Positions 14,465-39,739 of a stretch of 64,000 bases of DNA are shown piece by piece. Position numbers and translations under genes: made by a program. The notes below the pieces were generated by a model. The model was not told where the DNA came from. It saw only the letters and a list, made by a program, of their open reading frames with translations, and searched no databases. Position 1 is the stretch's first letter; each line of letters starts with the position of its first letter. The DNA is from a virus (taxonomy: Duplodnaviria; Caudoviricetes): IMG/VR virus record IMGVR_UViG_3300036803_000072, positions 1 through 64,000 of that record; one strand, 5' to 3'.

Positions 14465-15814
14465 TCAGGCACCGATAGCAGCGGCCAGGTTCACCTTCAC
14501 CATGGAAGCCGGGCGGTACACCGCAAGACCGAGCCTCTCCTCGGCCAGGACCACGATCGCGTTGCGGATAAAGAAGTCACTGTGCTGGTCGGCCGTGCGA
14601 ATGTTGGACTGCATCCGGTCGAACACCTGCGCACCCAGACCGAAAGCACCCAACAGGGCGGTACCTTCCGGGCACGCTGGGGTCGCCACAACCGGCATCT
14701 GCCACAGCGTCTTCTGTGCACCGGAGATGACCGACCCGGACACCAGGTAACGGCCCTGGTTGTCCTTGGTCAGCTCCATCTTCTCCCAGTCGTACGGGTG
14801 CACGACGATGCCCGTGGGGTCGTACTGGGCGAGCATCACGCGGGTGGCCGCACGGCGGATCGCGTCGACATAGGACTCGAACGCGGGCGGGGTGTAGGCG
14901 CCGGAGGGGAACAGCTGAATACCGGGCGTGTTGAAAATGCCGAGCAGGTTCTGACCCGTGCCGTCACCGAGCAGGATCTGCTCGTCTTCGACCAGGCGCA
15001 GGCCGTACATCAGGCGGGTGTCGATGATGCCGCGCAGCTGCGGCTCGTCATCGAGCACGTTGCGCGACGCAGGCACCCAGTGCGCCAGGGTGCGGATCGG
15101 AGTGGTCTTGATGTCGAAACGGATGTTGGATTTCGGCTTCAGACCGAAGTTGTCGCTAGGTGGGGTGCCTTCTCGTTCGGGCACCATCGCCGCTGCATTG
15201 TCGGCCGGGTCGACGAACCCCAACTCCTCAATGTATTCGATCATCACCGAGGAGGTGTTCATCTGCGGGAACAGGTCGCGCACCCGCCAGGTGAGCATCG
15301 GTGCGGTGACCATCGGGGCCCGCTGCACAGTGCCGAAACCGGGGTGCGTCACTACCCCGATGGAGCCGGAGTGCACGTCCTTGTACTGGACGCCGGAGGT
15401 GATCTCCATGTCCTCGACGGTGAACGCCCGGTCCATGAAGCCGGAGTCGCGGTGGCCCTTGAACTCCTCGGACTCAATGAACCGCTGACCGAGGGACTTC
15501 TGCTGCATCTGCGCCGGCACCATTTGCGCCGCGCCGCCTTGAGCCATCGCTACCGGCGCGGTGGCCGGGGCGTCGAGCCACGCGTCGAGCTCGCCCTTGC
15601 GTTCGATGGCGGTGACGGTCTTAAAGACGGTCTCGGCCTGATCGAGCAGACCCTTGTACTGAGTGAACGCCTCGGGCTTGACGTGCATGTTGCCGTCTTT
15701 GTCGAGCCACCCGGACGCGGTGATCTCATCCATCTTGCTGTTCAGAGACTTGATCTCTGCTCGACCACGTGAGACTAGGTCTTTGTCTTCGCGGTCGAGG
15801 ACTGGCGCTGTCAT
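14465..15814 (-). CDS. Major capsid protein, HK97 fold with N-terminal delta domain
   Basis: RTLAHWVPASRNVLDD, EDEQILLGDGTGQNLLGI, VVLAEERLGLAVYRP; ATG 15814 with GAGGAG RBS (ORF track starts upstream). Confidence 0.95.
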   Translation of the reverse strand: MTAPVLDREDKDLVSRGRAEIKSLNSKMDEITASGWLDKDGNMHVKPEAFTQYKGLLDQAETVFKTVTAIERKGELDAWLDAPATAPVAMAQGGAAQMVPAQMQQKSLGQRFIESEEFKGHRDSGFMDRAFTVEDMEITSGVQYKDVHSGSIGVVTHPGFGTVQRAPMVTAPMLTWRVRDLFPQMNTSSVMIEYIEELGFVDPADNAAAMVPEREGTPPSDNFGLKPKSNIRFDIKTTPIRTLAHWVPASRNVLDDEPQLRGIIDTRLMYGLRLVEDEQILLGDGTGQNLLGIFNTPGIQLFPSGAYTPPAFESYVDAIRRAATRVMLAQYDPTGIVVHPYDWEKMELTKDNQGRYLVSGSVISGAQKTLWQMPVVATPACPEGTALLGAFGLGAQVFDRMQSNIRTADQHSDFFIRNAIVVLAEERLGLAVYRPASMVKVNLAAAIGA

Positions 15815-15972
15815 GCGCTCTCCTCGTGCTCGGTGGGGGAGAGCACGGGGGCAGGCTGAGGCGAGCCCATCGTGCTCTGGACTCGCACCGGTCAGCACCA
15901 GGCGCGCGAGCAGGAGTAGATCACCGAAGGCGGAGATAGCGACGGCGACACGCCGGGCATTACCATGGGCCT

Positions 15973-16176
15973 ATGACAGTCAGGCGAATCGTTGCCGGTG
16001 TCGTACTGACAGCCGTGGCGGTGCTCGTTCCCGTGGCCACGGCGGTGCCGGCATCAGCAGCGTGCGGGGTCACCCCGGGGTTTTGTCCCAACTCGCCAGA
16101 CACCAGCAACCCGGACACCGGTGACATCACTCGGGAGAGCTACCCGGCCTGGCACACCGAAGCCGACTGGAGCTAG
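15973..16176 (+). CDS. Small secreted protein (moron, probably leaderless)
   Basis: Signal peptide ending ASA; TACCAT -10 box 6 nt before the ATG. Confidence 0.55.
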   Translation: MTVRRIVAGVVLTAVAVLVPVATAVPASAACGVTPGFCPNSPDTSNPDTGDITRESYPAWHTEADWS

Positions 16177-16427
16177 TCCAGTACGACACCCAGCACCGGT
16201 CTGGTGACCGCGTCGGTTATCTCCACCCGAATCCCATAAATGGTGGCCGTTCGTACGTCGCTGCCGGGCCACGGTGGCGGGAAGTCCTCGGGCACGTACA
16301 GGCGCAGGCAAGTGGGGGCCAGGTCCCCGATGCCGCAGCCCATCCCCGCAGTGAGCCGCGCCAGCACCGAGAGCAAGGTCAGCGACAGCTGATGCCACTG
16401 CGGCGCCATCACCATCGGCTCGGCCAT
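16173..16427 (-). CDS. Hypothetical protein
   Basis: 84-aa ORF between the polyprotein and capsid genes. Confidence 0.4.
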   Translation of the reverse strand: MAEPMVMAPQWHQLSLTLLSVLARLTAGMGCGIGDLAPTCLRLYVPEDFPPPWPGSDVRTATIYGIRVEITDAVTRPVLGVVLD

Positions 16428-16536
16428 TCAGCTCCAAATCTTGGATCAACTTGGATGGATCTTGGACGTAAAGAGACGGCCCCCTTGGAGCGAGGGCCGT
16501 CGGGCCCGGGCTGCTCACTCGGGCGTGGTACGACTT

Positions 16537-16734
16537 CTACCTTAGCCGGTCCGGGATGAAAGCCAACCCGATCGAATGCTTCCCATCTTCGGGGATCGGT
16601 GAACAGCACGCCGGGCACGGCATGCCCGCTCCGCCGCAGTAACAGGCCGCCGCGCAATCATGAAGATCACCCCACGGCTTGTCGGGGTGGTTCTCGCACA
16701 CGTGGGCCTGATCGTGACAGTTCTCGCAGTACAT
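16537..16734 (-). CDS. Small Cys/His-rich putative zinc-binding protein
   Basis: CENC, VCENH, CYC and CPAC motifs; ATG coupled to the polyprotein stop (TGATG). Confidence 0.6.
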   Translation of the reverse strand: MYCENCHDQAHVCENHPDKPWGDLHDCAAACYCGGAGMPCPACCSPIPEDGKHSIGLAFIPDRLR

Positions 16735-19700
16735 CAGCCCACCGTCGCCGCTGTGGGCTGCATCTGATACCCGGTGGCGGCCGTAACCCCGCGCGGACCG
16801 GCTTTCGACCCGCACGACGGGCACGCCGTGGCCTTGCTATCACTACCAACGGGGACCTGGACGTCGTTGCCGCAGGCCGCGCACGGCCACACCTTGTGCA
16901 TCACTCCGGAAGCGTCCATGACGTACCGGATGTCGGCGGCCACCGTGTCCGCGTAGGCCTCCTCATCGGGGTCCGGCTTGTCTTCCGGGTCCGGGGTGTC
17001 GGACCCCGACGCGGTTCGGGCCTTGATCTCCACGCCGAGCCGGGCGGCGCGCGACAAATCGAATGCGTCGATCACCATGTCTTCGATGGTCTTCTCCTCG
17101 GGCACGAGGTGACGCTTCCACACGGCGTCGATCGCCGCCTTGTCCGCCTCTTCTCCCTTGCGAGCCTCCGCCCGGCGGGCTTCCTGGCGCTTCTCCCGTT
17201 CGGTGTAGTTCAGCTTGTAGTCGGACGGGTCGTAGCTGTATCCGCTCCACCGTTGCTGAAGCTGACCACTCCCCGTGCCCCACGGCAGGTCCAGGGCCTG
17301 GAGGTCGGCGAGCAGCGCGGCCGGGTCATCCACTGTCCCGGTCATGCCGGCGGGGCGCACGCTGACCCCGTCGGTGGTCATGAACACCTTCAGGTCACTA
17401 GCGTCGCCCATCGCGCCGAGCGCCCCATCGGGCGACGCGTAGGCCTTCCCGGAGGCTTGCGGGTTGACGAACTTCTGCAACACCACCTTGCCGGCCTTGT
17501 TATAGGTGGAACGGCCCATGTTGCCCACCGCGCGGGCGGCCCTACTGCGGGCCGCTGACACGTTCTCGTCGGCCTGGGTTGCTACCGGCCCGGTCGGTGC
17601 GGCCGTGTTCACTCCGTCGGCTTGGAGTTTCGCCTCCAGCCGGGCCGACTCTGCCCGCGCGGCCTTCAGCTCATCGGTCTTCGGGAAGGCCATCCCCACG
17701 CGGGTCTTCATCTGCGCCACCTCTGAGCGCAGGTGCGCGGCCCGGTCGTGAAAGCGGTCGCGGCGGTTCTCGAAGCTGTGCAAGCTGTACTCGATCTTCG
17801 CGATGGTGCCGACACCCAGCTTATTGACGTCCTCTTGCGACATGCCGGTGATCACACCGGGCACGTCCTCAAAGTAGAGGTCGACGTGCATGCGCTGCTC
17901 GCGGCCCTGGTAGGGCTTCGCCATCAGCGTGTGGCCACCGATCTGGGCGACCTGCACCGGGCGGGGCGACCCGTAGGCGTACCGGGCCCGGTCGATGACG
18001 TCACCCAGCTTGGTCTTCAGCTCCGTGGCGGCGTCGGCGCGCTTAGTGACATCCACACCGGCGATGGTGGCCCGGAAGTGATCCCCGCCGATCTCCGTGC
18101 GCCTCTTGATCGCCGCATCCATCACTTTCGCGTCCGCGTCGGCCCCGGCGGCGTTAGCGGTGTAAGACACGATGTCTTTTTCGAGGTTGGTTTGGGTGCG
18201 CTTGTGCACCCGTTCCAATTTCGACAGCTTCGCCACCGACGAGTCGGCCTTCGCTTTGGCCATCAGGTCCATGTTGCCGGTGGCCAGGGCCTTGACCTCG
18301 TCATAGGACAGAGCGGTGTCGCCGACGTCCTCGATCTCCCGGGCGTCGAGGTTCCCGCGCATGATCTGCTCGATGAACTTTTGTTTACGGGCCAGGGTTT
18401 GCCACATGTAGGCGTCGAATGAGCCTTCGGTGACGTACCGGTAGATCCCCACCGTGGTATTGGTGTTGCCCTGGCGCATGATCCGGCCGTCGCGCTGTTC
18501 CACATCGGCGGGGCGCCACGGGGCGTCGAGATGGTGCAGGGCCACCGCACGGCGCTGCACGTTCGTGCCGACCCCCATCTTCTCCGAGGATCCGACGAGC
18601 ACGGAGATCGAGCCATTGCGGGCAGCGGCGAACATCTCCGCTTTCTGCACGTCGTTTTTCGCCTCGTGAATGAACCGCACCGACTTAGGGTCCATGCCCC
18701 GGGCGGCCAATTCGTCCCGCAGTTTCGCGTACGCGTTCCACTGCTCGGGATTGCCCGGTGTGCCCATGTCCAGGAACACCAGTTGCATCCCGCCGGGTGG
18801 CGGGTCGTCACCGGCATCAGGATTGTCGAGGTCTTTCGGCACGGGACGGTTTTTGTTGACCAGGTAGATCGCGTGGATCTTGTCGGCCGCGTCCTCGATC
18901 TTGCCCGTGGTGTGCTCGCCACCGACCAGGGCCATGCTCAGCGCGGCCTTGCGGCCATCACCGGAGATCTTGAGCATGTTGTCTTCCTCGGGCAGCACGG
19001 TGCGGTTGCGGACCGCCTCGGCCCGCTCGCCCAGCTGCGCCACGTAAGCCCGCAGCTCCTCCGAGGGCTGCACCGTGACGTTCTGCACCGCACCGGTCTC
19101 CAGGGCCGGGGTCGGCAGGTTCAGATCCTCAGCGGTCTTGATGTCGGCGAAGACGTGGAACAGGCGCAGCAGCTCAGGCACGTTGCGGAACTTCGCGAAT
19201 CGCGACGTCTGCCGGAAACCGATCCCCTCGGGCTTGAGCTCCATCTCCTCGACCACTTGACCGAATGTGGCCGCCCACTGGTCGAACGAATGGATGCCGG
19301 CCTCCTCTAGGAGGTCGGGGCGCATGAACCGTTGCATCACATACATTTGAGTGATGCTGTTGCGGATCGGGGTGCCGGTCGCGAACGTCGCCACCTTGCC
19401 CGACTGACTGCTAGCCCGCAGGTACTCCAATTTCATGTGCAGGTCGGTGGCCCGATCACTGCCCTCGATGGCGGCGCCCTGAATGTTGGACAGGGTCCGC
19501 AGGTTCGAGTACATGTGCGCCTCATCGACCATGACATGGTCGATGCCGGTCTGGTCGAAGCTGACCCCGACATCCTTCTGCTTGTCGAGCTTCTTTTTCA
19601 TCGCCTCCTCGGCGCGGATAACGGCCTTCTCCATTTTCTTGACCGTATTGTCGTGCGCCTTGCCCGACGCTGAGGAGGACTGCATGGCGAGCAGCTGGGC

Positions 19701-22700
19701 TCGCATCGTGGCGAGCTCGCGGTCGATGTAGGCCTTCTGCTGGTCTTTCGACATCGGGATGGCCTCGAACGCGCCCTGGGTGAGGATCACACAGTCCCAG
19801 TCGCCGGTGGCGGCGCGGGCAACGAACTCCCGGCGCCGGTCACCGTCGAGGTCTTTGGTGCCGGCGGCCAGGATCTTCGCCTGCGGGTAGGCCTCCAGGT
19901 ACTCGCGGGAGAACTGTTCGAGCATGTGGTTGGGGACCACGATGCTGGGCTTGTTGGCCAGGCCGAGCCGTTTGAGCTCGGCGCACCCCATGGCCATCTC
20001 TAGCGTCTTGCCGGCGCCCACCACGTGACCGAGTAGCGCGGCCGGTTCGGACACGATCCGTTCCACGGCCGCCACCTGGTGCGGGCGCGGCACTTTGGCG
20101 TCCGACATGCCGGGGAAGGCGCGTTCGGTGCCGTCGTAGCTGCGCAGCACGATCGCATTGAACCGATCGTTGTAGACGCCCTGAAGGCGCCGGGCGCGTG
20201 CCGGGTCCTCCCACAGCCACTCGCTGAAGCGTTCCTGGATCTCCTCGCCCTTCGCCTGGGCGGCCAGGGTGTCTTCGAGGTTCGGGTAGGACTTGCCATC
20301 GATGGTGTCAACGACCTTGATAGGTCGCTGCTCCAGCATCGCTTGCACGAGCTCGCCGAAAGACTTGCGGTCCGTGCCCCACTGCTCGGTGGCCGCCTTA
20401 CCGTAGGACGGGGCGTCCACCGTCCAGATGCCACCACCGGAGGTGGCCACGTTCACACCGGAGTAGCGATCACTCCCGACGCCCAGCATCTCCTCGATGA
20501 ACGCTTTGATGTCGGTCGGGCCGATCCACGCCGCGCCGAGCCGGCCGTCGATCTCGGCCGCACCGAGGTCCTCGGGTACGACTTTCTCCAGGGCCTTGAC
20601 GTTGGCCTCGAAGCGCGGGTCGTGCTCCGCTGCGGCTTTGGCGACAGCCAGCTTGCGGCGTACGTTGCCGGACAGGTAGGCCGCTGCCGGCTCCAGGGAA
20701 CCAGCCTCTTGCACAGACTCGCCGACGGTGGACAGGTCTACGTCACCGGCAGTGAGATGGGTGTCGACCAGCAGTCCGCGCGCTTCGGCGTCGGCGGCCA
20801 CGGCGGCGTTGGTTTCGGCGTCCGACAGCGGCGGCTGCTCGAAGATCAGGTCACCGAGTTGCGTGCGAGCACCAGCCTCATCGGTGCCCAGCATTTTCGC
20901 GATCGCCGGTAGGTCCACCCGACCGTAGGTGTCCATCGACAGGGCCAGCGCGTCTTTCGGATTGTCCGCCGTGGTCGGGATGACCCTCGGTGCGACCGTC
21001 CGCTTAGTGAAGATGCTGGTCTTGTGACCCTTGCCGGTCTCCGGGTCGTAGGTTTCCAGCGCGCGCACAGTCGCCGACATCGGGTCGCGGCGGAACCCAC
21101 CCTGACCGGGGGTGTTGCGGGCCCCGATCTTGCTCAGGGTGTAGCGGTTGATCGGCCCGTAGCGTTTCGCGTACGCGTCGTACTGGGCATTGAGGTCGGC
21201 CCGGAGTTGCTTGATCTCCGGTGTGTTCGACACCGACGCGGCCTCAGCGGCGAGCAGTGAGGCCAGGGTGTCGCGCATGCCCATCAGGCCGCGCAACTCC
21301 TCTTTCTGCTTCTCCGGCACCTCGAACGGGACGGCGGCGCCGCCGTTGGCCTGAGTGAAGTTGCCGTCGGCGTCGACCCCGATGTGCCCCTCGTGCCGGG
21401 AGGTGTCCGGGTCGACGAGTGCCCCGTCACCGGCCAGGCGCGGGCTGGACGTCAGGCCCTGTTCTTTCGCGGCGTCGGTGATCCGGGCCAGCGCGTCAGG
21501 CAGATCGGCCATGGACTTGTCACCGATCACCCGGATCTCGCCGGTGCCGTACTGGCCGGGCTCGGCGTGCAGCTCACCGAGGATCTGATCGGGGTGCTCG
21601 GTAAAGTAGTCGTTGACCGGGACTGTCTCGCCGTCGATCTCCCGCTCGCTGGAGTTGATCCAGCCTTGCGGGGTTTGTGGTTCCGCACCCGGCTCCCGGC
21701 GCCGGAAAATGAGAATGTCCTCGATGACCGACGTGCCCGACGCGCGCTGATGGCTACCGGTGGGCAGGCGCACCGCGCCGAGCAGGTCACCCTTCTCGGC
21801 CAGGCGCTTGCGCGCCGCGCTGCCCTTGGAGTCCAGGGTGTAGCGGGAGGTCAGGACGGCGACGATGCCGCCGGGTTTGGTCAGGTCCAGGGATTTGGCG
21901 ATGAAATGGTTGTGGATCGAGTCACCGGCGCGGTTGTGCAGCCGGTCGGTGAGCTTGAAGTCCCCGAAGGGGACGTTGCCGATGGTGGCGTCGAAGTGGC
22001 CGGTGGGGATGCGGGTGTCGGCGAAGGACTCGTTGCGGATGGTGGCGTTGGGGTACAGGGCGTGGGCGATGGCGGCGGTGGTGGAGTCGAGCTCCACCCC
22101 GACCATGTCGACGTTGCTCGGTGCGAAGCCGATGAAGTTGCCCGACCCGCTGCCCGGCTCCAACACCCGACCCCCGTCACTGAGGCCGAGATCCTGCACT
22201 GCCTTCCACATGGCCTGTACGGCGGTGGCGTCGGTGTAGTGGGCATTGAGGGTGTTGCGCTTGGCCTCGTTCCACTCCGAGTCGGACAGCAGGCCGCGCA
22301 GCTTGTCGCGGTCGGCCGCGTACTCGGGCTTCAGATCGTCGAAGACCTCAGGCAGGCCACCCCATCCGGCCCACCGGGCGAGGATCGCCTGCTCCTCGGG
22401 CGTGGCGGGGCGCTTGTCTTTTTGCAGCTCCCGCAGGGTTTCCAGGGCGGCGAGGTTGGCGTCGAGCTTCGCTTTCTTACCGGCGGGCGCGAGATCATCC
22501 ATGCCACCGGGCTGGAATGACTGGGCGGCGTCGGGGATGGCGTCGACCGCGCCCGGTGTGGCTTCAGGCTGGGCTAGGTCAGGTTCGCCGGCCGGGGCGG
22601 CACTACCGGCATCGCTTCCCGCTGGCTGGCCGTCTGTTCCTGTGTCGCTTGATCCATCAGGAGTTGGAAGTCGCTCAGGGCCTCGGTCAGTTCGTTGTCC

Positions 22701-25700
22701 TCCGGTGTCGGTTTCTGCGGGGGCATGCTCGGGTCCGGTGTCGCCACCGGCGGGTAGTCGCTGTCCGGCCAGTCCGGGGGCGGTGAGCTCATCAGCGTTT
22801 CCCGCATCACCAGTTCGGTCGCTGCCTGCTCCGCTGCTTTCAGGCGTCCCAGCTTCTGGCTGAACGTCTCGTCGGGCGGGTCGGTCCCCGCCAGCGCGTC
22901 GGCCACCTGCTGTATCTCCTGCTGCGCCCGGTCGCCCAGCTGGCCGAAGTACGTCGCCTTGTCCGCGATCTTGTCGTAGATCTGTGGCAGGTACTGCTGG
23001 TACCACTGGGCTACCCTCGTCGCCAGTGGCCCCATGGTGGGCGTCGTCATGGGCCGATTGTGCACCCTGATCGGCGAGTCGCCAGTTGGCTTCGCTGTCG
23101 CGTTTCGCATCGACTTCTTTCAGGATCTCGTCTACGGCGTCGTCGTCATCAGCGGCGAGCAGTCGAGCCTCTAGGGCGTGACACTCTTCCGGGTCACCGT
23201 CGACCCCCATTTCTCGCAACGCTTTGCGCAGCTTCAGCCGGTGCCCGTCGCGCACGGCATCGATGGCATCGTGCCGTGCATCGAGGTAGCCGTCCTGAAG
23301 TGAGGGTCGCCCCGACTCGTCAATGACGCGGGCAACATCGACTTTCGGCGCCGTTCCGGTCGTACTGGGTAAGGCGATCAAACCGAGGCGCCGCGCTTCC
23401 GGCGCCGCTTCGATCTCGGTAGCGCGCTCACGGGGATTGTCGTGGCCCATGGTTCGCAGGGCGCGCACGAGGGCGCCGTGGTCACCGGAGCGCGCGGCGG
23501 CTACAGCTGCGGCGTGGGCGTCTTGGATGGCGCTGTGCGCGTCGGCGGCTTCCCCGTTGGCCTGATCGCGGGCTGAAGCGTTGGCCTGCCGGGCGGTGCG
23601 GCGCTCGGTCGAGTCGGCGGGGGGGCCGGTCCGGTCGGCGGCGCCGGGCTTGACGGCGCCCATGCGGGCACGGTGCGCGTCGTAAGCGTCCGGCGCGGGC
23701 TTCACCTTGCCGGCGGTCTCCCGGCGGCGCAGCTCCGTCTCGACGGAGCCGAGCAGGGCCTTGATCCGATCCCGTTCGATGCGCTTAGCGACCCGACGCA
23801 CTTTGGCGTTCGCGTTGCGCTTGACGCGGCGTTCCTCGCGCAACCCGCCAGCGGCGGCGAACAGCATGCCGGGCTTGAGCTCCCCGCGCGCGATGGCGCC
23901 GTGGATGTCGTCCCCGATGACCCTATGAAGGTCATTGAACGCTTTGCTGTCGGCCGGGACGCGGCGCAACAACTTCGCCAAACGGTCCGCCGCTGCCTTC
24001 ACCGCAGCGGGGTCGGAGTCTTTCGTATTGAGCAGGTCACCGAGGTCTTCGGCGGCCCCGGCGACACCGGGGCGCAATTTCGGGCCGGTATCCTCACCCT
24101 GCCCGGCCGGGTCGGAAGTCGCCCCCGACCCCCCCGACCCGGCCGGGGCCTTCAGCGATGTACCGGCCTCGCGCTTGCGGGCGGTGTCGCGGCGAGCCAG
24201 CTCCGTCTGGAGAGCCAGTTCGTCGGTGAGATCTTTTTGGGTGGTGTGCAGCTGCGGCGTGGTCTGTCCGACTAGTGCCGCTTCGCCCGCTTGCAAGGCG
24301 GCTTCGACGCGGTCTTGCCGGGCGGCGACCTCCTCCGTAACCTCGATCGTGCCGTCGGGGTCTTCGCTGATACCCAACGCCTTATCCCGGACCTCGGCGG
24401 CGCGGTCTTGCACGTCGGGTGGCACGGGCACCGCGTCGGTGGGGATCTCCGACGCGGGCCTGCCTTGCGGCTGCACAGCGGCGACGGCGGCGCGCTTGCG
24501 CTTCTCATCCCCGAAGATCTTCTCGGCCATCTTCGAGTCGGAATACTCAGTCGAGGTCTTCGGCAGATTGTTTCCCCGTGCACGGGCGTGCCGCGCTTCC
24601 GCTGCCGCGTGCTCGGCTTCGAGCTGGTCGTCGGTCAGCTTCTCCGGCGCATTCATGTTGCCGGTGGGCACGTACGGGCCATCAGCGCGGGTGCCGCCAC
24701 CGGGCTTGCCGACCTGCTCACGGGCGTGCTGCTCGACGGTGGCCTGATCATCGGGCTGCGGGGTGCCGGTAGTGATCCGGGAATGCGCCGCCTGGGCGGC
24801 CTGATCGGTCACCGGGACGGCGGCCGGTGCGTTCACCCCGGGCGGCGCGTTCGGCGGCGCACCGGGCTTACTGGGGGGCGGGGCGACACCGCCGGGCGCT
24901 TGCCCCGGCTTACCCGCGCCAGCGGCGGGGTTCGCCGCGTTGGCGATCTTGTCGAGGCGTTGCTGCGCCACCTCGGTGGGCAGCACGAGCAGGGTGGCGG
25001 CAACGTCGTGCGGATCCTGGTCTTTGCTCAAACCCATCCGGGTCAGGGCGTCGGCGAGCTCATCGCGGTTGCCGTCACTGATCGCGCCCTCGGCGTCGTA
25101 CCGGGCCTGGGCGGCGTCCGCCGATGGCATGCCTTTCGGTGCCGGGGTCGCGCCCAGGGCGGTGCCGATCGTGGCGGCCTGGGAATGCTTGGTGATGATC
25201 GCGGTAACCGAGTCCTGGTCGGCCTTCCTCGCCGCCGGGTCCGCCCACCGCTTCTTACGGGCCGCCATGTCATCCCAGGGGATGCCGAGACCGGCGATCT
25301 CGGTCAGCGCAGCCTCGACCTGATCAGGCGGGGTGTCGGTCGGCAGCATCGGCAGGGGTGAGCCGTTGGCCGTGTCGACGATCACCCAGCCCTTGCCGTT
25401 GTTCACGGCCGCGATCTGGGAGTCCGGGGAGGCGAGCACGTTGGCGCCGGGACGGGTGAACTGGGCGAGCATGTTGGCGCTGGCGATCGCGCCGACACTG
25501 GCGACACCGCCGGGGGTGGTGTCGACGGCCTTCAGCTCGGAGATCCGCTCACCGAGGTGCGCGATCGCAGTAGCGGAGGCGTCGGTCGCACCGGACGTGT
25601 GACCGGGCAGCGCGTGACCGCCTGGTCGGTCACCGGGCGGGGGTGGTGGGCCGGCGGCGTTCGCACCCGAAGGTCGCTGTCCGGTGACCGGATGGGTGAG

Positions 25701-26513
25701 TTTGTGGCTGTCCTGCGCCGCGACGGTGGTGTGACGGATCTCGTCGTCGGTGGCGGGTCGGTCCAGGCCATGGGGTTTCGTGCCGGGCCTGATCGGCGTG
25801 CCGATAGGCATGCCCCAGAACTTCGCGTCGCGAACAGTACGCACTTTGACTTCGATCCCCTCGACGGTGGCTAGACCGGAACGAGGGTCATCGTACCACG
25901 TGTCGCCGTCGGCGGTCTCCGTTTGGAGGGATTTCACTCCAGTCAGATGTGCGAGCCGATGCGCGCCGTGCAATACCTGAGAAAACTCATACACATCGTA
26001 GTCGCTGAGGTAGCGTTTCCCGCCGCGCATTTTCGCGCCGCCGGGCCGCACCTTATAGCCAATCGAGAATGACTGCTCGGGACCGTAGAACTTCGCGTTC
26101 TCATAGGCGTCCCGGCCCGCCGTAGTGGCCAAGTTGTAGCGGGCCTTAACGAGCAGTCCGCCAGCGTTGGCGGGCCACGGGGCACCGTCGGGGGTCGTCT
26201 TCGGTAGCCGATCGTCGCCAGGCATGAGCTCAACCGCCCATTCCGCGCGCGAGACCGGGACCTTCCAGTCGTGCGAGTCGACACCCTTAGGCTTCAGCCG
26301 CTTGACGGCCACACCCAGGGAACCGGGCACGATGACGTCACCGACCTCATCGCCGACGCCGGACACCGCAACCAGCGCGGTGATGGTGCCCTCTTTGTCG
26401 TCATGGCCGATGACCCCGGTCATCGGTGAGGACGTCTCGCCCGTCGGCAGCGCCTTCCACTCCAGCTGACCGATGTCAGCCGGGCACGTGTCGAGGTCTT
26501 CGGTGGTGGTCAC
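16734..26513 (-). CDS. 3259-aa head polyprotein: HK97-type prohead protease + DarB-like N6-adenine methyltransferase + SNF2-type helicase
   Basis: Protease about 25930-26410 (GDVIVPGS, SHDW, SFSIGY, YEFSQV). MTase about 21600-22480 (RWAGWGG, NAHYT, VLEPGSGSG, IGNVPFG). Helicase about 18350-20100 (GAGKT, DEAH, ATGTP, QRDGRIMRQGN). Confidence 0.9.
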   Translation of the reverse strand: MTTTEDLDTCPADIGQLEWKALPTGETSSPMTGVIGHDDKEGTITALVAVSGVGDEVGDVIVPGSLGVAVKRLKPKGVDSHDWKVPVSRAEWAVELMPGDDRLPKTTPDGAPWPANAGGLLVKARYNLATTAGRDAYENAKFYGPEQSFSIGYKVRPGGAKMRGGKRYLSDYDVYEFSQVLHGAHRLAHLTGVKSLQTETADGDTWYDDPRSGLATVEGIEVKVRTVRDAKFWGMPIGTPIRPGTKPHGLDRPATDDEIRHTTVAAQDSHKLTHPVTGQRPSGANAAGPPPPPGDRPGGHALPGHTSGATDASATAIAHLGERISELKAVDTTPGGVASVGAIASANMLAQFTRPGANVLASPDSQIAAVNNGKGWVIVDTANGSPLPMLPTDTPPDQVEAALTEIAGLGIPWDDMAARKKRWADPAARKADQDSVTAIITKHSQAATIGTALGATPAPKGMPSADAAQARYDAEGAISDGNRDELADALTRMGLSKDQDPHDVAATLLVLPTEVAQQRLDKIANAANPAAGAGKPGQAPGGVAPPPSKPGAPPNAPPGVNAPAAVPVTDQAAQAAHSRITTGTPQPDDQATVEQHAREQVGKPGGGTRADGPYVPTGNMNAPEKLTDDQLEAEHAAAEARHARARGNNLPKTSTEYSDSKMAEKIFGDEKRKRAAVAAVQPQGRPASEIPTDAVPVPPDVQDRAAEVRDKALGISEDPDGTIEVTEEVAARQDRVEAALQAGEAALVGQTTPQLHTTQKDLTDELALQTELARRDTARKREAGTSLKAPAGSGGSGATSDPAGQGEDTGPKLRPGVAGAAEDLGDLLNTKDSDPAAVKAAADRLAKLLRRVPADSKAFNDLHRVIGDDIHGAIARGELKPGMLFAAAGGLREERRVKRNANAKVRRVAKRIERDRIKALLGSVETELRRRETAGKVKPAPDAYDAHRARMGAVKPGAADRTGPPADSTERRTARQANASARDQANGEAADAHSAIQDAHAAAVAAARSGDHGALVRALRTMGHDNPRERATEIEAAPEARRLGLIALPSTTGTAPKVDVARVIDESGRPSLQDGYLDARHDAIDAVRDGHRLKLRKALREMGVDGDPEECHALEARLLAADDDDAVDEILKEVDAKRDSEANWRLADQGAQSAHDDAHHGATGDEGSPVVPAVPATDLRQDRGQGDVLRPAGRPGAAGDTAGGRRAGGDRPARRDVQPEAGTPESSGAGSDRTGDAGNADELTAPGLAGQRLPAGGDTGPEHAPAETDTGGQRTDRGPERLPTPDGSSDTGTDGQPAGSDAGSAAPAGEPDLAQPEATPGAVDAIPDAAQSFQPGGMDDLAPAGKKAKLDANLAALETLRELQKDKRPATPEEQAILARWAGWGGLPEVFDDLKPEYAADRDKLRGLLSDSEWNEAKRNTLNAHYTDATAVQAMWKAVQDLGLSDGGRVLEPGSGSGNFIGFAPSNVDMVGVELDSTTAAIAHALYPNATIRNESFADTRIPTGHFDATIGNVPFGDFKLTDRLHNRAGDSIHNHFIAKSLDLTKPGGIVAVLTSRYTLDSKGSAARKRLAEKGDLLGAVRLPTGSHQRASGTSVIEDILIFRRREPGAEPQTPQGWINSSEREIDGETVPVNDYFTEHPDQILGELHAEPGQYGTGEIRVIGDKSMADLPDALARITDAAKEQGLTSSPRLAGDGALVDPDTSRHEGHIGVDADGNFTQANGGAAVPFEVPEKQKEELRGLMGMRDTLASLLAAEAASVSNTPEIKQLRADLNAQYDAYAKRYGPINRYTLSKIGARNTPGQGGFRRDPMSATVRALETYDPETGKGHKTSIFTKRTVAPRVIPTTADNPKDALALSMDTYGRVDLPAIAKMLGTDEAGARTQLGDLIFEQPPLSDAETNAAVAADAEARGLLVDTHLTAGDVDLSTVGESVQEAGSLEPAAAYLSGNVRRKLAVAKAAAEHDPRFEANVKALEKVVPEDLGAAEIDGRLGAAWIGPTDIKAFIEEMLGVGSDRYSGVNVATSGGGIWTVDAPSYGKAATEQWGTDRKSFGELVQAMLEQRPIKVVDTIDGKSYPNLEDTLAAQAKGEEIQERFSEWLWEDPARARRLQGVYNDRFNAIVLRSYDGTERAFPGMSDAKVPRPHQVAAVERIVSEPAALLGHVVGAGKTLEMAMGCAELKRLGLANKPSIVVPNHMLEQFSREYLEAYPQAKILAAGTKDLDGDRRREFVARAATGDWDCVILTQGAFEAIPMSKDQQKAYIDRELATMRAQLLAMQSSSASGKAHDNTVKKMEKAVIRAEEAMKKKLDKQKDVGVSFDQTGIDHVMVDEAHMYSNLRTLSNIQGAAIEGSDRATDLHMKLEYLRASSQSGKVATFATGTPIRNSITQMYVMQRFMRPDLLEEAGIHSFDQWAATFGQVVEEMELKPEGIGFRQTSRFAKFRNVPELLRLFHVFADIKTAEDLNLPTPALETGAVQNVTVQPSEELRAYVAQLGERAEAVRNRTVLPEEDNMLKISGDGRKAALSMALVGGEHTTGKIEDAADKIHAIYLVNKNRPVPKDLDNPDAGDDPPPGGMQLVFLDMGTPGNPEQWNAYAKLRDELAARGMDPKSVRFIHEAKNDVQKAEMFAAARNGSISVLVGSSEKMGVGTNVQRRAVALHHLDAPWRPADVEQRDGRIMRQGNTNTTVGIYRYVTEGSFDAYMWQTLARKQKFIEQIMRGNLDAREIEDVGDTALSYDEVKALATGNMDLMAKAKADSSVAKLSKLERVHKRTQTNLEKDIVSYTANAAGADADAKVMDAAIKRRTEIGGDHFRATIAGVDVTKRADAATELKTKLGDVIDRARYAYGSPRPVQVAQIGGHTLMAKPYQGREQRMHVDLYFEDVPGVITGMSQEDVNKLGVGTIAKIEYSLHSFENRRDRFHDRAAHLRSEVAQMKTRVGMAFPKTDELKAARAESARLEAKLQADGVNTAAPTGPVATQADENVSAARSRAARAVGNMGRSTYNKAGKVVLQKFVNPQASGKAYASPDGALGAMGDASDLKVFMTTDGVSVRPAGMTGTVDDPAALLADLQALDLPWGTGSGQLQQRWSGYSYDPSDYKLNYTEREKRQEARRAEARKGEEADKAAIDAVWKRHLVPEEKTIEDMVIDAFDLSRAARLGVEIKARTASGSDTPDPEDKPDPDEEAYADTVAADIRYVMDASGVMHKVWPCAACGNDVQVPVGSDSKATACPSCGSKAGPRGVTAATGYQMQPTAATVG
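22574..23050 (-). CDS. Nested same-strand, out-of-frame gene (TnpV-like small protein)
   Basis: Protein-like sequence WYQQYLPQIY...YFGQLG...LAGTDPPDETF.QKLGRL; codons end almost entirely in G/C in this frame, while the polyprotein frame here is A/T-ending and low-complexity. Confidence 0.6.
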   Translation of the reverse strand: MTTPTMGPLATRVAQWYQQYLPQIYDKIADKATYFGQLGDRAQQEIQQVADALAGTDPPDETFSQKLGRLKAAEQAATELVMRETLMSSPPPDWPDSDYPPVATPDPSMPPQKPTPEDNELTEALSDFQLLMDQATQEQTASQREAMPVVPPRPANLT

Positions 26514-28264
26514 CCGGTCACCGGCGCGTCGAACAGGTTCGGCTCCGCCATCTCCGCACCGTCCACTGTGGCCGTTCCGGAAACGTCCGCGACGTCCTCC
26601 ATTGTGGATTCAGGCGCGGGGTCGGCGATCATTCGAGCCCCTAGGGCGGCGTGCTGGGCGGTGGCCAACAGGTCAGCCGTAGTGTCGTCGGCGTCACCCT
26701 GGGCGTCGTCAGGGATGTCGCCCAGCTGCTCCTCCAGGGCGGCGAGGTAGTCGGCCACGTAGGGCTCATCGAAGACCTGACCCCAGTCGTCGACCCCGGC
26801 GTGCAGCGCGGCGAGCTCGGCGTCGGTGTCATCTATCGCCATCGCCACGGCCTTGATCTCGACATCTTCGGGCCAGACCAGGGCCTTCGCACCCACTACG
26901 CGGCCCATGTTCATCGACCGGCCGACGTTGCCGCGCGCGGTGTGCGCGTACTTACCGGGCCATTCACCCGTGGCCATCTTGTGAATGTTCGCGGTGAGTC
27001 CATTAAGAACGCGCGGGGAATGCACATACTTAGCCAGGTGCCGGCGCAGGCGCTTGAAATCCCCGCCGCTACCCGGACGCCATTTTGCGCGTCCTTTCCC
27101 GTAAGCCCAGTAATTGCGCAGTTTCGCCGCACGCGGATCCGGTGAAGCGATCTTCACCTCGACGTCGTCTTCGAGAGACTTCTCGCCGGGCTTGTCGGGC
27201 TCGCCGGAGTCGTCGTCACCGTCGTGGTCGGGATCCAGGGCGTCGATACGGTCGTGGATGACCTGTGGGGCGTACAGCCGGTGCGCTTCGGACTTCAGGT
27301 GCGCCTTGAGCTTGTGCTTGTCCCCCGGTCGGGCGTCATGGAACTTATCGATCTCGTCTTTCAGGTCCTCGGAGTTCTGCACCGGGTGACGGTTGGTGCG
27401 CCCGTCTAAGGTGTGCCCGGTCTTGCGCAGCCCGTTGCGCTCGTGCCCGGACATGGCCCGCTTGACCTCGATGTCGTCGACATCATCGGCCTCGACGCTC
27501 TCGGCGCGTTTGGCTTCGATCTCACCCGCGCGGTCGCGCATGTCGCCGGCCCACGCGGCACCCACGTCCCCGCAATGTTCGGCCACCCAGTCCACGCCGC
27601 GCGAGTTAAGGGCCTTGCCCTCAGCGACCAGGGCGGCGACCGGGCCGGGCAGAATCGCGGCCACCTCGCACACCACCTGCGGCGGGGTGAAAGTGACCTC
27701 ACCGGACTTCGTTTCGGTGATCACGGGTGCCTCCTGATTGCCGAGCGGTATGTCGAGCACGTCGCCGGCCAGGGCCAGGCGCAGCGTGCCGAAGCGAACG
27801 GGGCCGGTGTAGGTCTGCGCCGAGACTCCAGCTGCTGAGTCGTCGGGGTCCACGGCCACCGTGACGTGAGGCAGGAATGGTTCGTGTTGCGGTGGCGGGT
27901 CGGGGTAGTCGTCATAGGTGCTGGTCGTCCAGCTCGCCCACGTGCGCAGCGCACCCAGTCCCGGTGCGTCGCTGACCATGAGCACGAGACAGGGGGTGCG
28001 GTCACCGTCGGGCCCGCCATCGGGATTGAACAGCGCGGGTCCGATGATCCGGGCGTCCACCGGATCGAGACTCGGTGCGGATGCGGTCACCAGCTGGCGG
28101 AGCCGGTCACCGGCACTGGCAGGCCAGGTGGTGACGTCATCACCGAGATAGAGCAGGGTCAGGTGCAGTTCGCTGGCCGGCTCGCCACCGTCCAGCGCCA
28201 GAACGGCAGGGTTGTCGGGGACCAGTGCAAGCATACCGCCGGTGTGCTGCGGGCTATCGACCAT
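26510..28264 (-). CDS. 2H phosphoesterase (2'-5' RNA ligase-like) fused to several small head-associated domains
   Basis: Two HxT motifs (LHLTLLYLG, FLPHVTVA) in the first ~175 aa, followed by modules separated by ExK motifs; stop overlaps the polyprotein start. Confidence 0.8.
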   Translation of the reverse strand: MVDSPQHTGGMLALVPDNPAVLALDGGEPASELHLTLLYLGDDVTTWPASAGDRLRQLVTASAPSLDPVDARIIGPALFNPDGGPDGDRTPCLVLMVSDAPGLGALRTWASWTTSTYDDYPDPPPQHEPFLPHVTVAVDPDDSAAGVSAQTYTGPVRFGTLRLALAGDVLDIPLGNQEAPVITETKSGEVTFTPPQVVCEVAAILPGPVAALVAEGKALNSRGVDWVAEHCGDVGAAWAGDMRDRAGEIEAKRAESVEADDVDDIEVKRAMSGHERNGLRKTGHTLDGRTNRHPVQNSEDLKDEIDKFHDARPGDKHKLKAHLKSEAHRLYAPQVIHDRIDALDPDHDGDDDSGEPDKPGEKSLEDDVEVKIASPDPRAAKLRNYWAYGKGRAKWRPGSGGDFKRLRRHLAKYVHSPRVLNGLTANIHKMATGEWPGKYAHTARGNVGRSMNMGRVVGAKALVWPEDVEIKAVAMAIDDTDAELAALHAGVDDWGQVFDEPYVADYLAALEEQLGDIPDDAQGDADDTTADLLATAQHAALGARMIADPAPESTMEDVADVSGTATVDGAEMAEPNLFDAPVTG

Positions 28265-31751: not shown

Positions 31752-32059
31752 AATACCATTCCGGCAACTACGTCGGCGCTGACGAGATCGGTGCGTGGCT
31801 TGGCCGCTCCGGTGCGTGGATTCGACTGCTGCGACAGCAAGACAGCAAATACGCAATTCCCTGCCCCGTGCCACTGCCCGAACCGGACATGCTCACCGAG
31901 AAGCGCCGCCGACGCGGGGAAAGCATCGCGTTGTGGCGTCGTGATCGCCTGCCCGAGTTTGAGGAGTGGTTCCGGGCGCACGTCCGCACGCTGGCCGAGC
32001 AGGAGATCGCCACCATGGAAGCCAACGTGGCCCGCATGAAGCAGACGGAGACATCGTGA
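31748..32059 (+). CDS. Small putative HTH DNA-binding protein
   Basis: YVGADEIGAWLGRS...P.PD...LWRRD.L.EFEEW resembles excisionase/MerR-like winged HTH; coupled to dnaE. Confidence 0.55.
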   Translation: MKYHSGNYVGADEIGAWLGRSGAWIRLLRQQDSKYAIPCPVPLPEPDMLTEKRRRRGESIALWRRDRLPEFEEWFRAHVRTLAEQEIATMEANVARMKQTETS

Positions 32060-35000
32060 CCAGCTCGTTTGTTCATTGCCACGTCCATTCGGACTGCTCC
32101 ATGCTCGACGGCGCCGCCCGACTGCCCGACCTGATGACCGAAGCAGTCCGGCTCGGCATGCCCGCACTGGCCATCACCGACCACGGCAACGTCTTCGGCG
32201 CCTACGACTTCTGGAAAGCGGCCCGCGCCGCCGGCATCAACCCGATCATCGGCATGGAAGGCTACGTCGCCCCCGGCTCCCGGCACGAACGCACCCGCGC
32301 CACCCTGGACGGGACGACGGTCGATGACTCGAACCCCGGCGAGATGTACACCCACATGACGTTGCTCGCCGAGACCACCGAGGGCATGGGCAACCTGTTT
32401 CGACTGTCGTCACTGGCCAGCCTGGAAGGCTTCTACTACAAACCGCGCATGGACCGGGAGCTGCTCGAAACCTACTCGAAGGGGATCATCGCCACCACCG
32501 GATGCCCATCCGGGGAGGTCAACCGCCTCTTGCAGCGCGGCGACTATAAAGCCGCATGCCAGGCCGCCAGCGACTACCGCGACATCTTCGGGGCCGAGAA
32601 CTACTACTGCGAGCTCATGGATCACGGCATCGATGTCGAGCGCGGCGTCAAGCGAGACCTGATGCGACTCGCCCATGATCTGAACCTGCCGCTGCTGGCG
32701 ACCAACGACCTGCACTACGTGCGCGCACAGGACGCGAAGCCACACGACGCACTGCTGTGTGTCCAGACTAAGAAGACCATCGCCGACCAGAACAGGTTCC
32801 GTTTCGAGGGGCAGGAGTTCTACCTAAAGTCCGCCGAACAGATGCGGGCACTGTTCGATGACGGCGACTTCCCGGGGGCGTGCGACAACACGCTCGCCAT
32901 CGCGGCCCGCTGCCACGTCGAGTTCGACGAGGGCGCCGACCTCATGCCCCGGTTCCCGGTACCTGATGGCGAGACCGAGGCCAGCTGGCTTCTCAAGGAA
33001 GTTAACCTCGGTCTCGCCCGTCGCCTTCCCCGCGACGTCCCCGCAGAATACCGCGCCCGGCTCGATGCCGAGCTCGACCTGATTCTGCGCATGGGCTACT
33101 CCGGTTACTTCCTGGTCACCGCCGACTTGATCCGTCACGCGAAGTCCATCGGCATCCGCGTCGGACCCGGTCGTGGCTCTGTCGTCGGCTCCCTGGTCGC
33201 CTACGCCCTGGGCATCACCGAACTGGACCCGATCGTTCACCGTCTGCTGTTCGAGCGGTTCCTGAACCCGGAGCGACCCTCGACGCCCGACATCGACCTC
33301 GACTTCGACGAACGCCGCCGAGGCGAAGTGATCGACTATGTTACCGGCAAATACGGTGCCGACCGGGTCGCCCAGATCGTCACCTACTCCACGATCAAAG
33401 CCCGCGCGGCGGTGAAAGACGCAGCGAAAGTCCTGCACGGGGCAGCCGGTTTCGCCCTCGCCGACCGGATCAGCAAGGCCATGCCCCCGCCGATCATGGG
33501 CAAGGACATCCCGTTGACCGGCATCTTCGACCCCGACCACAAGCGGTACGGCGAGTCGGCCGCCGTGCGCGCCCTGTACGACAACGACGCGCAGGTCAAA
33601 GAGGTCATCGACACGGCGCGCGGACTGGAGGGCCTGAAGCGGCAGTGGGGAGTGCACGCCGCTGGTGTCATCGTTTCCCGCCTCCCCCTGCTCGATGTTG
33701 TCCCCATCCACCGGCGCCCAGCCGACGGGGCGATCATCACTCAGTTCGACATGTGGGCGTGCGAAGCCCTCGGTCTGGTCAAAATGGACTTCCTGGGTTT
33801 ACGGAACCTGACGATCATTGACGATTGCCTGGCGGGGATCGCAGCCAGCGGCAAACCCGTCCCCCTACTGGAGACCTTGCCGCTGGATGACCCCGGCGTC
33901 TACCAGCTGCTCGCGCGCGGCGACACCCTGGGCGTCTTCCAGCTCGACAGCGGCCCCATCCGTGACCTACTGCGCAAGATGGGGCCAACCCACTTCGGGG
34001 ACATCTCCGCCTGCAACGCCCTGTACCGGCCCGGGCCGATGGCGGCCAACGCGCACAACGACTACGCCGACCGGAAAAATCACCGACAGCCGGTCAAACC
34101 CATCCACCCGGAGCTCGCCGAGCCACTGGCCGACATCCTCGACGAAACCTATGGCCTGATTGTCTACCAGGAGCAGGTACTGGCCATCGCCCAACGGGTC
34201 GCCGGGTACTCCCTGGGGCGGGCGGATCTGCTGCGCAAGGCGATGGGTAAAAAGATCCGGGCGGTGCTCGACCGAGAATACGGGCCCTTCGCTGACGGCA
34301 TGGCGGCCTCCGGCTACTCCCCAGGCGCTGTCAAGGCGCTGTGGGACATCCTGATCCCGTTCTCCGACTACGCGTTCAACCGAGCCCATACCGCAGCCTA
34401 CGGGCTGATCGGCTACTGGACGGCGTACCTGAAAGTGCATCACCCTGTGGAATACATGGCGGCCCTGCTCACCAGTGTCGGTGACGACAAAGACCGCAGC
34501 GCGATCTACCTGGCGGAGTGCCGCCACATGGGCATCACCGTGCTGGTGCCCGATGTGAACGCCTCGGGTGCGCACTTCACTGCCGACGGCGTCGACATCC
34601 GCTTCGGCCTCTCGGCGGTGCGCAACGTCGGGGCGGGCGCGGTCGAAGCGATCATCGCCGGTCGAGTCGACGGCCCGTACACCAGCATCGCCGACTTCCT
34701 GCGCCGAGTACCCGCTTCGGCGTGCAACAAGGGCGCGGTCGAGTCCCTGATCAAAGCGGGCGCGTTCGACTCCCTGGGATACGCACGCTGCGGCCTGCAC
34801 GGTGCGTGCGCGGCGGTGATCGCAGCCGCGCGACCGAAAGGCAAACGGGCCGGGCAGGGTGACCTGTTCGCCGAAGGCGCGTTCGACGTCGACATTCCCA
34901 CCGCACAGTGGGACACCCCGGTCCAGCTCGCCCACGAGCGCGACATGCTCGGCCTCTACGTCTCCGCCCACCCCCTCGACAGCGTTGCCCCGATGCTGGC

Positions 35001-35535: not shown

Positions 35536-35701
35536 GCTGCGGCATCAGGATAGTGTCGACCATCCGAGCGAAATGCCATTCCTCGCACCATCTTTGCGCG
35601 CTCCTGACCATCATCGGCCCGTTGGGAGCCTTCAGCCAGACCTCCTCACTGGGCGGAAGGTCATGGAAGGGGCACTCCTGTGCCTCGTCAGACGTGGTCA
35701 T
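35381..35701 (-). CDS. Hypothetical protein
   Basis: ATGA-coupled to the MuF stop; its 3' end overlaps the dnaE 3' end in antisense. Confidence 0.4.
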   Translation of the reverse strand: MTTSDEAQECPFHDLPPSEEVWLKAPNGPMMVRSAQRWCEEWHFARMVDTILMPQLIRLIQEGDLYSGPPTDRPAAPPAGAAGELRPVRPAAATPHYSLGWPPVLS

Positions 35702-39679: not shown

Positions 39680-39739
39680 GCTCACCTCCGTAAAGATCGG
39701 GCGAGCCAATCTAGCCACGGACAGTGTCGTGAAATGGGG

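Follow-up and report, generated by a model that had tools for sequence, protein, structure and literature searches.

Why would a phage encode its prohead protease and an enzyme resembling the DarB protein of phage P1 in one and the same reading frame? The question is raised by a stretch of 64,000 nucleotides (here called the window) that corresponds to bases 1-64000 of the 77,313-base IMG/VR record IMGVR_UViG_3300036803_000072 (CheckV completeness 64%). Its source is an uncultured soil phage infecting actinobacteria, and the G+C content of the window is about 66%. The window contains a giant open reading frame (ORF) at positions 16734-26513, which starts with GTG and encodes a protein of 3259 aa (346.6 kDa); all features of the window described below lie on the minus strand unless stated otherwise. 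The results presented here indicate that this gene probably encodes a protease-anchored polyvalent head protein, that is, a carrier in which DarB is embedded in frame and by which DarB would be loaded into the head for injection.

The first-pass annotation of this DNA had described one uninterrupted frame joining an HK97-type protease, an N6-adenine methyltransferase and an SNF2 helicase, and the 3259 codons indeed contain no internal stop. The GTG of the giant overlaps the stop codon of the upstream gene as GTGA. As the proteins of its relatives begin to align at residues 1-3 of the giant, the assigned start is credible.

The N-terminal part of the giant (aa 1-250, positions 25764-26513) was assigned to the HK97/S78-type prohead serine proteases. 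Residues 36-198 match phrog_80 ("head maturation protease", E 6.8e-12), and residues 42-195 match model positions 1-140 of the 142 of TIGR01543 ("HK97 family phage prohead protease"), the latter with E 2.8e-4 and a score of 21 bits, which is below the curated cut-off of 59 bits. A Pfam search with giant aa 1-250 gave nothing even at E 1, and PF04586 gave nothing in the whole record. Meanwhile, 41 of the 44 members of alignment A1, which consists of the window's domain and its 43 nearest stand-alone relatives (38-45% identical), match PF04586 Peptidase_S78, and two other giants (P0027 and P0031) match Peptidase_S78 in Pfam directly. In tblastn, the domain showed 41-49% identity to proteases annotated for capsid maturation in Gordonia and Brevibacterium phages. 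Across the 44 sequences of A1, H81 is at least 90% conserved, while S150 and E176 are invariant, and the motifs are kept in 22-23 of the 23 other giants that carry DarB. By analogy, we take H81, S150 and E176 to be the catalytic His, Ser and acid, respectively. Position was used as a further mark of family membership, and the giant is a head-module gene lying immediately before the major capsid gene.

Searches for further proteases agreed with the earlier claim that the window has no other protease gene. The whole 77-kb record contains a single phrog_80 match, which lies inside the giant ORF, and neither Peptidase_S49 nor ClpP was found in it; the search for S77 gave no match in any control genome and is hence uninformative. 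The 584-aa ORF upstream of the giant matches phrog_18402, also named "head maturation protease", solely via its 2H phosphoesterase part. The records of five relatives, including two complete genomes (terminal repeats, 120-121 kb) and one that is 92% complete, likewise have one phrog_80 match each, within the giant ORF, and no S49 or ClpP protease was found in the three most complete of them. These searches show that, as judged by homology, the giant's N-terminal domain is the phage's sole recognisable prohead protease.

The DarB module was delimited by alignment with P1 DarB and by profile searches. It comprises a pre-methylase domain (aa 1314-1420, positions 22254-22574), the core of an N6-adenine DNA methyltransferase (aa 1421-1605, 21699-22253) and an SNF2/SF2 helicase (aa 2092-2732, 18318-20240). 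The "DarB-like antirestriction" family phrog_10089 matches aa 1938-2997 with an E value of 0, and phrog_11801 (DNA methyltransferase) spans aa 1347-2557. The Pfam matches to the giant, namely Eco57I in the methyltransferase, SNF2-rel_dom, ResIII and Helicase_C in the helicase and a Zn ribbon (Zn_ribbon_8), are all below threshold. Three segments of P1 DarB align collinearly with the giant: the methylase (P1 aa 87-274 to giant aa 1421-1605, 30% identity), the N lobe of the helicase (P1 784-1225 to giant aa 2092-2500, 24%) and its C lobe (P1 1474-1567 to giant aa 2639-2732, 37%), with the helicase C-terminal to the methyltransferase in both. The methylase has motif I (LEPGSGSGNF at 1451) and motif IV (GNVPFG at 1512, identical in P1 DarB), and the helicase has a Walker A motif (GAGKT, 2166), DEAH (2330) and motif VI (QRDGR, 2673); these motifs are conserved in 22-23 of the 23 other DarB-carrying relatives. 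The cargo is a complete DarB-like methylase-helicase.

The description of the protein as a protease with DarB appended to it was correct as to the two parts but not as to the layout, since DarB is inserted inside a carrier that has a conserved middle module and a Zn-ribbon C-terminus of its own, both missed by the earlier reading. To define the modules, pieces of the giant were used as jackhmmer queries against 189 collected proteins; this sample is biased, as it consists of length-restricted matches and best representatives, and the counts given here apply to it. The protease domain is followed by a domain of ~100 aa named R1 (aa 346-460, positions 25134-25478) and by the m690 module of ~245 aa (aa 691-944, 23682-24443). 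A second copy of the R domain, R2 (aa 2991-3139, 17097-17543), stands behind the DarB module, and the protein ends with a tail that carries a putative Zn ribbon (16737-17096; CAAC at 3211, CPSC at 3231, weak match to Zn_ribbon_8) and terminates in ..QMQPTAATVG. The R1/R2 repeat was detected by jackhmmer only, as a self-BLAST of the giant gave nothing. In alignment A3, m690 consists of a helical part, an invariant RPGxAGAAEDLGD core and a very basic C-terminal helix. This module is the hallmark of the cargo-carrying protease lineage: it was found in 51/51 of the proteins of at least 1800 aa with an N-terminal protease, but in only 1 of the 110 proteases shorter than 900 aa. All 51 giants have the protease domain at the N-terminus, as do 161 of 180 proteins overall; in the remaining 19 (421-1685 aa) it is internal or C-terminal. 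The DarB module, together with its pre-methylase domain, is present in 24/51 giants and the Zn-ribbon tail in 17/51, while the cargo of other giants consists of zeta-toxin kinases or is of unknown type. In a few giants (P0028, P0054) m690 stands after the cargo, not before it. A profile search of m690 against the Protein Data Bank (PDB) gave nothing, and its hhalign comparison with the C-terminal halves of stand-alone proteases gave a probability of 0.3%.

The layout of the carrier is seen most clearly in P0040, the nearest representative, which has 1634 aa and a protease 89% identical to that of the giant. P0040 aligns solely to giant aa 1-1048 and 3139-3259; it lacks R2 and shares the ...QMQPTxATVG Zn-ribbon tail, which is 77% identical to the giant's. 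No Pfam match was obtained with P0040. As judged from the alignment, P0040 is the same carrier without DarB. Since it aligns only to the middle and the C-terminus of the giant behind the shared protease, DarB is an insert between them; this insert of ~1,900 aa is of the conjugative-element type and whole.

A length-restricted search with aa 1-260 in JGI, Logan, ENA and NCBI data retrieved 38 proteins of 1792-5704 aa that carry the N-terminal domain at 41-73% identity. Of these, 21 have DarB-type Pfam families, 7 have Zeta_toxin and 6 are called Peptidase_S78, so that a combination of protease, methyltransferase and SNF2 helicase, for which a domain-architecture search had been suggested, does recur. 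The newer Pfam families PF28553-5 are also listed for the relatives. When 1.84 billion representatives were searched exhaustively, 1469 relatives were obtained at E <=1e-3; the best 150 of these 1469 are mostly stand-alone proteases of 300-800 aa.

For a comparison of the gene order, six loci were used, which represent five IMG/VR contig lineages and include two complete genomes; the giant genes of two records (L004 and L007) are identical. A locus scan with the N-terminal domain alone gave nothing, one with P0015 led back to a contig of the existing set, and a scan with the zeta-toxin giant P0032 gave short contigs only, matching its zeta-toxin part. The order portal, MuF, DUF932, (CxxC), 2H, giant was found in 6/6 loci, and the capsid gene comes next in 5/6, the remaining one (L008) ending inside the giant. 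The inner order of the giant in these loci is protease, m690, B (a nested gene described below), methylase, helicase and tail. Cultured relatives have, in the identical slot, a free-standing gene of 417-484 aa for the homologous protease.

The uninterrupted frame reported by the first-pass annotation is open throughout, but a conserved gene nested in the linker before the DarB module had been missed. Over aa ~1080-1320 the G+C contents at the three codon positions of the giant frame are ~0.87/0.6/0.47 (GC3 0.47-0.57) versus a GC3 of 0.8-0.9 elsewhere, and this fall indicates a coding signature in the +1 frame there. The +1 frame encodes a balanced, helical-looking protein of 153-178 aa, named B (positions 22574-23035, 153 aa from MGPLATRV; the longest ORF begins at 23110). 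Read in the giant frame, the DNA of B is a stop-free linker (aa 1160-1312, 22578-23036), a filler rich in R, G, P, A and D. Every relative's locus has, immediately ahead of the pre-methylase domain, a homologue of B that is read in the +1 frame. When the same DNA was compared, the B frame showed 53-56% amino-acid identity versus 38-46% for the giant frame, and in the closest pair the differences numbered 6/10/20 at B codon positions 1/2/3. As the B frame is better conserved and the differences are skewed to its third positions, we conclude that B is under selection at the protein level. B as an in-frame domain of the relatives' giants, displaced in the window by a frameshift error, was rejected, since blastp against the 38 relatives gave nothing below E 0.49.

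A Shine-Dalgarno-like run precedes the ATG of B in most lineages, and B may be translated separately from an internal start. The motif AGGGTGCACAATCG lies ~20-40 nt upstream of the B start in the window (~23040-23075, minus strand) and in three relatives (L004, L005, L006), but not in L008 and L011, and may represent an internal promoter or a signal of some other kind. In the giant frame AGGGTGCACAATCG translates as QGAQS, a string also seen in further relatives. In 12/24 DarB giants the giant-frame "shadow" of B can be detected; the other DarB giants have linker motifs such as QGAQS or (E)VPAxDLRxDxGxGxVL, and in the seven most distant ones the presence of B is deduced from such motifs only. 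The B family comprises 171 clusters, typically of ~174 aa, from many actinobacterial genera, and nearly all its members are annotated as "hypothetical". One of the 120 B homologues listed, an NCBI record, is labelled "TnpV protein"; the name was rejected, as no Pfam or NCBIfam model supports it. Pfam searches gave no match at threshold for B (E <=1; two matches with E 0.13-0.26 to unrelated families) and one unrelated sub-threshold match for four genome-borne versions of B (E <=0.1), while NCBIfam gave none for B. Furthermore, tblastn with B against 50,697 phage records gave no match, and PHROGs gave nothing above noise. An analogy of B with P1 Ulx was also discarded (hhalign probability 0.3%; ulx is downstream of darB, not inside it).

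The origin of B and DarB was examined by scanning one genome per prokaryote species with the giant P0018. The scan gave ~600 DarB-like genes, of which the best 79 loci were analysed. These match the DarB part only: the pre-methylase domain, methylase and helicase are present in 79/79, and the protease, R1, m690, R2, the tail, this capsid protein and this portal were found within 10 kb in 0/79. In five of the 79 loci, all from Actinobacteria, a B homologue is located just upstream of the pre-methylase domain. It is in the +1 frame in 4/5 and is nested in DarB's open frame in the three intact loci (L017, L018 and L022), where a short basic peptide upstream of B opens the DarB frame and the overlap shows a non-coding signature (~0.83/0.65/0.52) in the DarB frame. 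The unfused DarB proteins (1798-1904 aa) are 45-46% identical to giant aa 1333-2953/2965. One B+DarB locus has a type IV coupling protein on one side and a tyrosine integrase on the other, and these neighbours identify it as part of an integrative conjugative element. From the finding of nested B+DarB unfused in actinobacterial genomes we conclude that the phage lineage took up the cassette whole, with B included, and P0040 and the unfused genomic cassettes represent the states before and after the fusion event.

The two other loci with B come from metagenome-assembled genomes (MAGs) of Actinomycetota, and their DarB frames break after 565-596 codons. In L024 the DarB frame spans B and is broken further down; in L023 the first half of B is in frame with DarB, whose frame is broken after 596 codons. 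The breaks are probably assembly indel errors or mark decaying copies. It should also be noted that the conjugative element L017 encodes a GmrSD-type restriction endonuclease (16946-18796, minus strand) beside its integrase.

On this basis, the following course of events is proposed. The protease and carrier parts would enter the procapsid by assembling together with the capsid protein, in the manner of prohead proteases, and would thereby take the DarB module inside. The protease would then cut the polyprotein in low-complexity linkers, the shadow of B being one of them, and a DarB fragment of ~200 kDa would stay in the head and enter the host with the DNA. There, the DarB methylase and translocase would guard the phage genome against restriction on its entry, like P1 DarB. 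B would be less likely to belong to the head than to serve DarB as a partner, chaperone or regulator, since it accompanies DarB outside phages, including in one conjugative element. The loading of DarB is supported by the protease slot beside the capsid gene, by the giant's being the only detectable protease and by the selection for a joined frame, as well as by the fact that the same carrier holds other cargo. The earlier suggestion that the fusion is a route of a DarB-like enzyme into capsids therefore fits the slot, the sole protease, the recurrence of the architecture, the maintained frame and the varied cargo, although its wording that the enzyme is forced into "every capsid" is an assumption about stoichiometry.

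Several points weigh against this proposal. Capsid loading, cleavage, injection and anti-restriction of DarB are steps that we infer. The window's own protease domain scores below the curated thresholds of Pfam and NCBIfam; its putative family membership derives from PHROGs, transitive homology and conserved residues, and a PDB sequence-profile search with it returned noise only (best E 0.21). Pfam and PHROGs gave nothing above noise for m690, R1 and the tail, and these modules, like R2, have no known function. Stand-alone relatives, such as those of Gordonia phages, manage without carrier or cargo. Finally, if the fusion is the sole source of protease, each protease molecule would drag ~320 kDa of extra protein into the prohead; such a load is physically plausible, given the ~40 copies of the 250-kDa DarB reported per P1 virion (PMC9024508).

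An unlikely alternative is that the fusion does enter the head but DarB has another role there, such as methylation of the genome in the capsid in the course of packaging or afterwards, translocation during packaging or ejection, or service as a core or scaffold that sets head size. The P1 Dar proteins have been linked to head morphogenesis and head size (PMC9024508, PMC12810830), the long helical segments and the basic helix of the carrier could act as a scaffold, and no separate scaffold gene was recognised between the protease and the capsid gene. However, the B+DarB cassette occurs in actinobacterial genomes that lack capsid genes within 10 kb of it, in one case on a conjugative element, and this location away from capsid genes points to a core function tied to DNA entry and not to head building. 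Moreover, the carrier exists without DarB (P0040) and with zeta-toxin kinases, so that assembly needs no DarB, and the catalytic motifs of both enzymes are conserved in 22-23/23 relatives.

We regard as quite improbable a second alternative, in which the locus consists of three genes (protease-carrier, B and DarB), the carrier frame is open through B by chance at 66% GC, and DarB is not attached to it. The giant frame does have a non-coding signature over aa ~1080-1320 and the conserved protein there is in the +1 frame; besides, stops are intrinsically rare in this frame relation. For the calculation of how often the giant frame would stay open by chance, the B protein was kept fixed and its codons were redrawn from each genome's own usage. 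The probability of finding no stop in the giant frame was 0.057 for the window, 0.075 for L004, 0.064 for L005, 0.024 for L008, 0.023 for L006 and 0.050 for L011, i.e., ~0.02-0.08 for a single genome. Yet the giant frame over B is stop-free in all six loci, and the product for the five diverged lineages, with L005 omitted as near-identical to L004, is ~1e-7, a value that overstates their independence, as the five lineages share ancestry. The result is decisive in direction: the giant frame over B, through whose DNA the junction of carrier and DarB passes, is kept open by selection and serves as a disordered linker. A separately initiated DarB was rejected, as no conserved in-frame ATG or GTG follows the stop of B, where instead a conserved GQVDAIP...DDFAPAGKK stretch is found; and as there is no in-frame stop, ribosomes starting at the protease must continue through. 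Read-through by chance is also contradicted by the 21 of 38 database giants that are called as one protein, by the C-terminal tail of the carrier, which is kept in frame behind DarB, and by the unfused actinobacterial DarB frames, which also start upstream of B and span it.

The weakest alternative, an assembly or sequencing artefact in which separate genes were joined through a chimeric contig or a compensated frameshift, might be raised for a metagenome-derived viral contig that is 64% complete and whose source run breaks into separate unitigs at two alleles around 22230-22717, but it is excluded for practical purposes, because contigs of several independent samples, two of them closed into complete genomes, repeat the architecture, and contigs of soil runs leave the ORF intact. 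For this, contigs of 4 soil runs were compared with the giant ORF: the probable source run showed 0 differences, a run from another, independent study, covering most of the ORF, differed by substitutions alone, and no indel was reported within the ORF in any of the four runs, the sole indel being at 26703, outside it. No RNA data set was listed with the junction stretch, a result that carries no information on expression. In the probable source run, the two alleles at 22230-22717 have a depth of ~45 vs 15, and the minor one is the variant of the independent soil run; there is thus strain-level variation covering the end of B and the pre-methylase domain.

A wider interpretation can be offered only tentatively, as one that may well prove wrong. 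The protease lineage as a whole may be a general cargo-delivery chassis, composed of the protease, m690, an insert site and the Zn-ribbon tail, which takes up whole effector genes of conjugative elements in frame. The DarB cassette would bring with it B as an obligatory overlapping gene on the same strand. The alternative frame of B could then have been co-opted as a disordered tether accessible to the protease.

The system of phage P1 offers the closest comparison. P1 DarB is described as a 250-kDa head protein that is believed to enter the cell and to protect against type I restriction, and that is recruited last, via a 30-residue N-terminal signal and helper proteins (PMC9024508). The giant shares with it the methylase-helicase dyad and the order of its parts, at 24-37% identity in three collinear segments. 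However, P1 DarB is a separate protein and the P1 protease a separate gene, whereas here DarB lies covalently within the protease protein, and no homologues of the P1 Dar helpers (Hdf, DarA, DdrA, DdrB, Ulx) were recognised in this phage. In P1 (L016, 26577-26975), ddrB also holds a nested annotated gene, iddB, on the opposite strand.

Polyvalent proteins were described by Iyer et al. 2017 (PMC5512222), who present head proteins as carriers and the DarB dyad as cargo, propose that DarB methylates or shields incoming DNA, and treat assemblin-like peptidases as a rare component that is "always" C-terminal. The giant resembles these proteins in combining several effector and structural domains in one very large protein among the head genes and in carrying cargo common to phages and conjugative elements. 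It differs from them in that the peptidase, C-terminal in that text, is N-terminal in 51/51 giants and is the sole prohead protease. The MuF- or portal-fused effectors of the same study likewise use a structural head protein as carrier; here the carrier is the protease. The passages of PMC5512222 used for the comparison mention neither m690 nor the R domains, the Zn-ribbon tail or the nested gene, and the supplementary architecture lists of that study could hold architectures with an N-terminal protease. In titles and the beginnings of abstracts, no literature was found that describes a fusion of the protease with DarB or a gene lying inside a darB-like one. Polyvalent proteins, head-protein carriers, DarB as cargo and assemblin-like peptidases as a rare component were known already, and the N-terminal sole protease, the chassis of m690, R domains and Zn ribbon, the internal position of the cargo and the conserved overlap with B appear to be new.

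Cargos trimmed by prohead proteases are also known. In T4, internal proteins are directed to the core, and the prohead protease trims them. T4 internal proteins and Alt (cleaved by gp21), as well as the ejection proteins of SPN3US, are enzymes or anti-restriction proteins that are loaded, trimmed, kept and ejected with the DNA (PMC7411985), as is proposed for the giant. There, each cargo is a protein of its own with a short targeting peptide, whereas here the cargo is fused to the protease.

HK97 gp4 belongs to the same protease family and occupies the same position just upstream of the capsid gene. The parts of gp4 outside its catalytic domain reportedly direct encapsidation and can carry foreign proteins (work attributed to Duda, Oh and Hendrix, 2013). 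HK97 gp4 and the protease-scaffold fusions lambda C/Nu3 and P2 gpO have 200-700 aa and at most a scaffold domain, and are not known to have enzymatic cargo or a nested gene.

If the covalent carrier role is true, it would be the simplest known guarantee that an anti-defence enzyme is in the head, as it would need no targeting signal or helpers, unlike the six-protein Dar system of P1, and it would provide a natural template for the loading of foreign proteins into capsids. The cargo looks exchangeable (DarB, zeta-toxin kinases and others of unknown type) and thus offers a testable model for the evolution of injected counter-defence. The overlap with B is of interest in its own right. It represents 150 codons of same-strand dual coding tested by selection, both in phages and in unfused copies (one in a conjugative element), in which a folded protein is encoded in one frame while the other must stay open as a linker, and in which B is systematically hidden by gene callers. 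If the chassis interpretation is true as well, one stretch of DNA would encode both a folded partner and the linker that decides on the loading and release of the cargo.

The genes surrounding the giant in the window are arranged in the order portal, MuF-like, DNA polymerase III alpha (on the other strand), DUF932, Rpf-LysM, CxxCxxCC, 2H, giant and capsid. The portal gene (37988-39718, PF04860) is at the start of the head module. The gene of the MuF-like head protein (35698-38025) has an intein-like insert, with a weak Intein_splicing match below the cut-off. The DNA polymerase III alpha gene (31966-35535, plus strand) is complete (PHP, NTPase, finger, HHH and OB) and lies between the MuF-like and DUF932 genes, at a place where the relatives have only ~1 kb. 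Directly upstream of the giant is the gene of the 584-aa protein with a 2H phosphoesterase domain (26510-28264; N-terminal PF13563, and phrog_6439 as a small conserved domain). This gene shows translational coupling to the giant, its synteny is kept in all relatives, and its product may be a further head cargo. The next conserved gene downstream of the giant is that of the major capsid protein of the HK97 fold family (14465-15898; PF05065 with E 1.3e-40, phrog_10).

Three small ORFs are found between the giant and the capsid gene. The ORF of 154 aa at 16054-16518 (minus strand) has G+C contents of 0.79/0.64/0.54 at the three codon positions and is probably not a gene. An ORF of 84 aa in another frame (16173-16427, minus strand) has coding-like values of 0.67/0.49/0.85 and no match in the relatives' loci. 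The third, a small Cys/His-rich ORF at ~16540-16734 (minus strand), starts at the stop codon of the giant with a TGATG overlap and has a GC3 of ~0.75; it could encode a translationally coupled zinc-binding protein.

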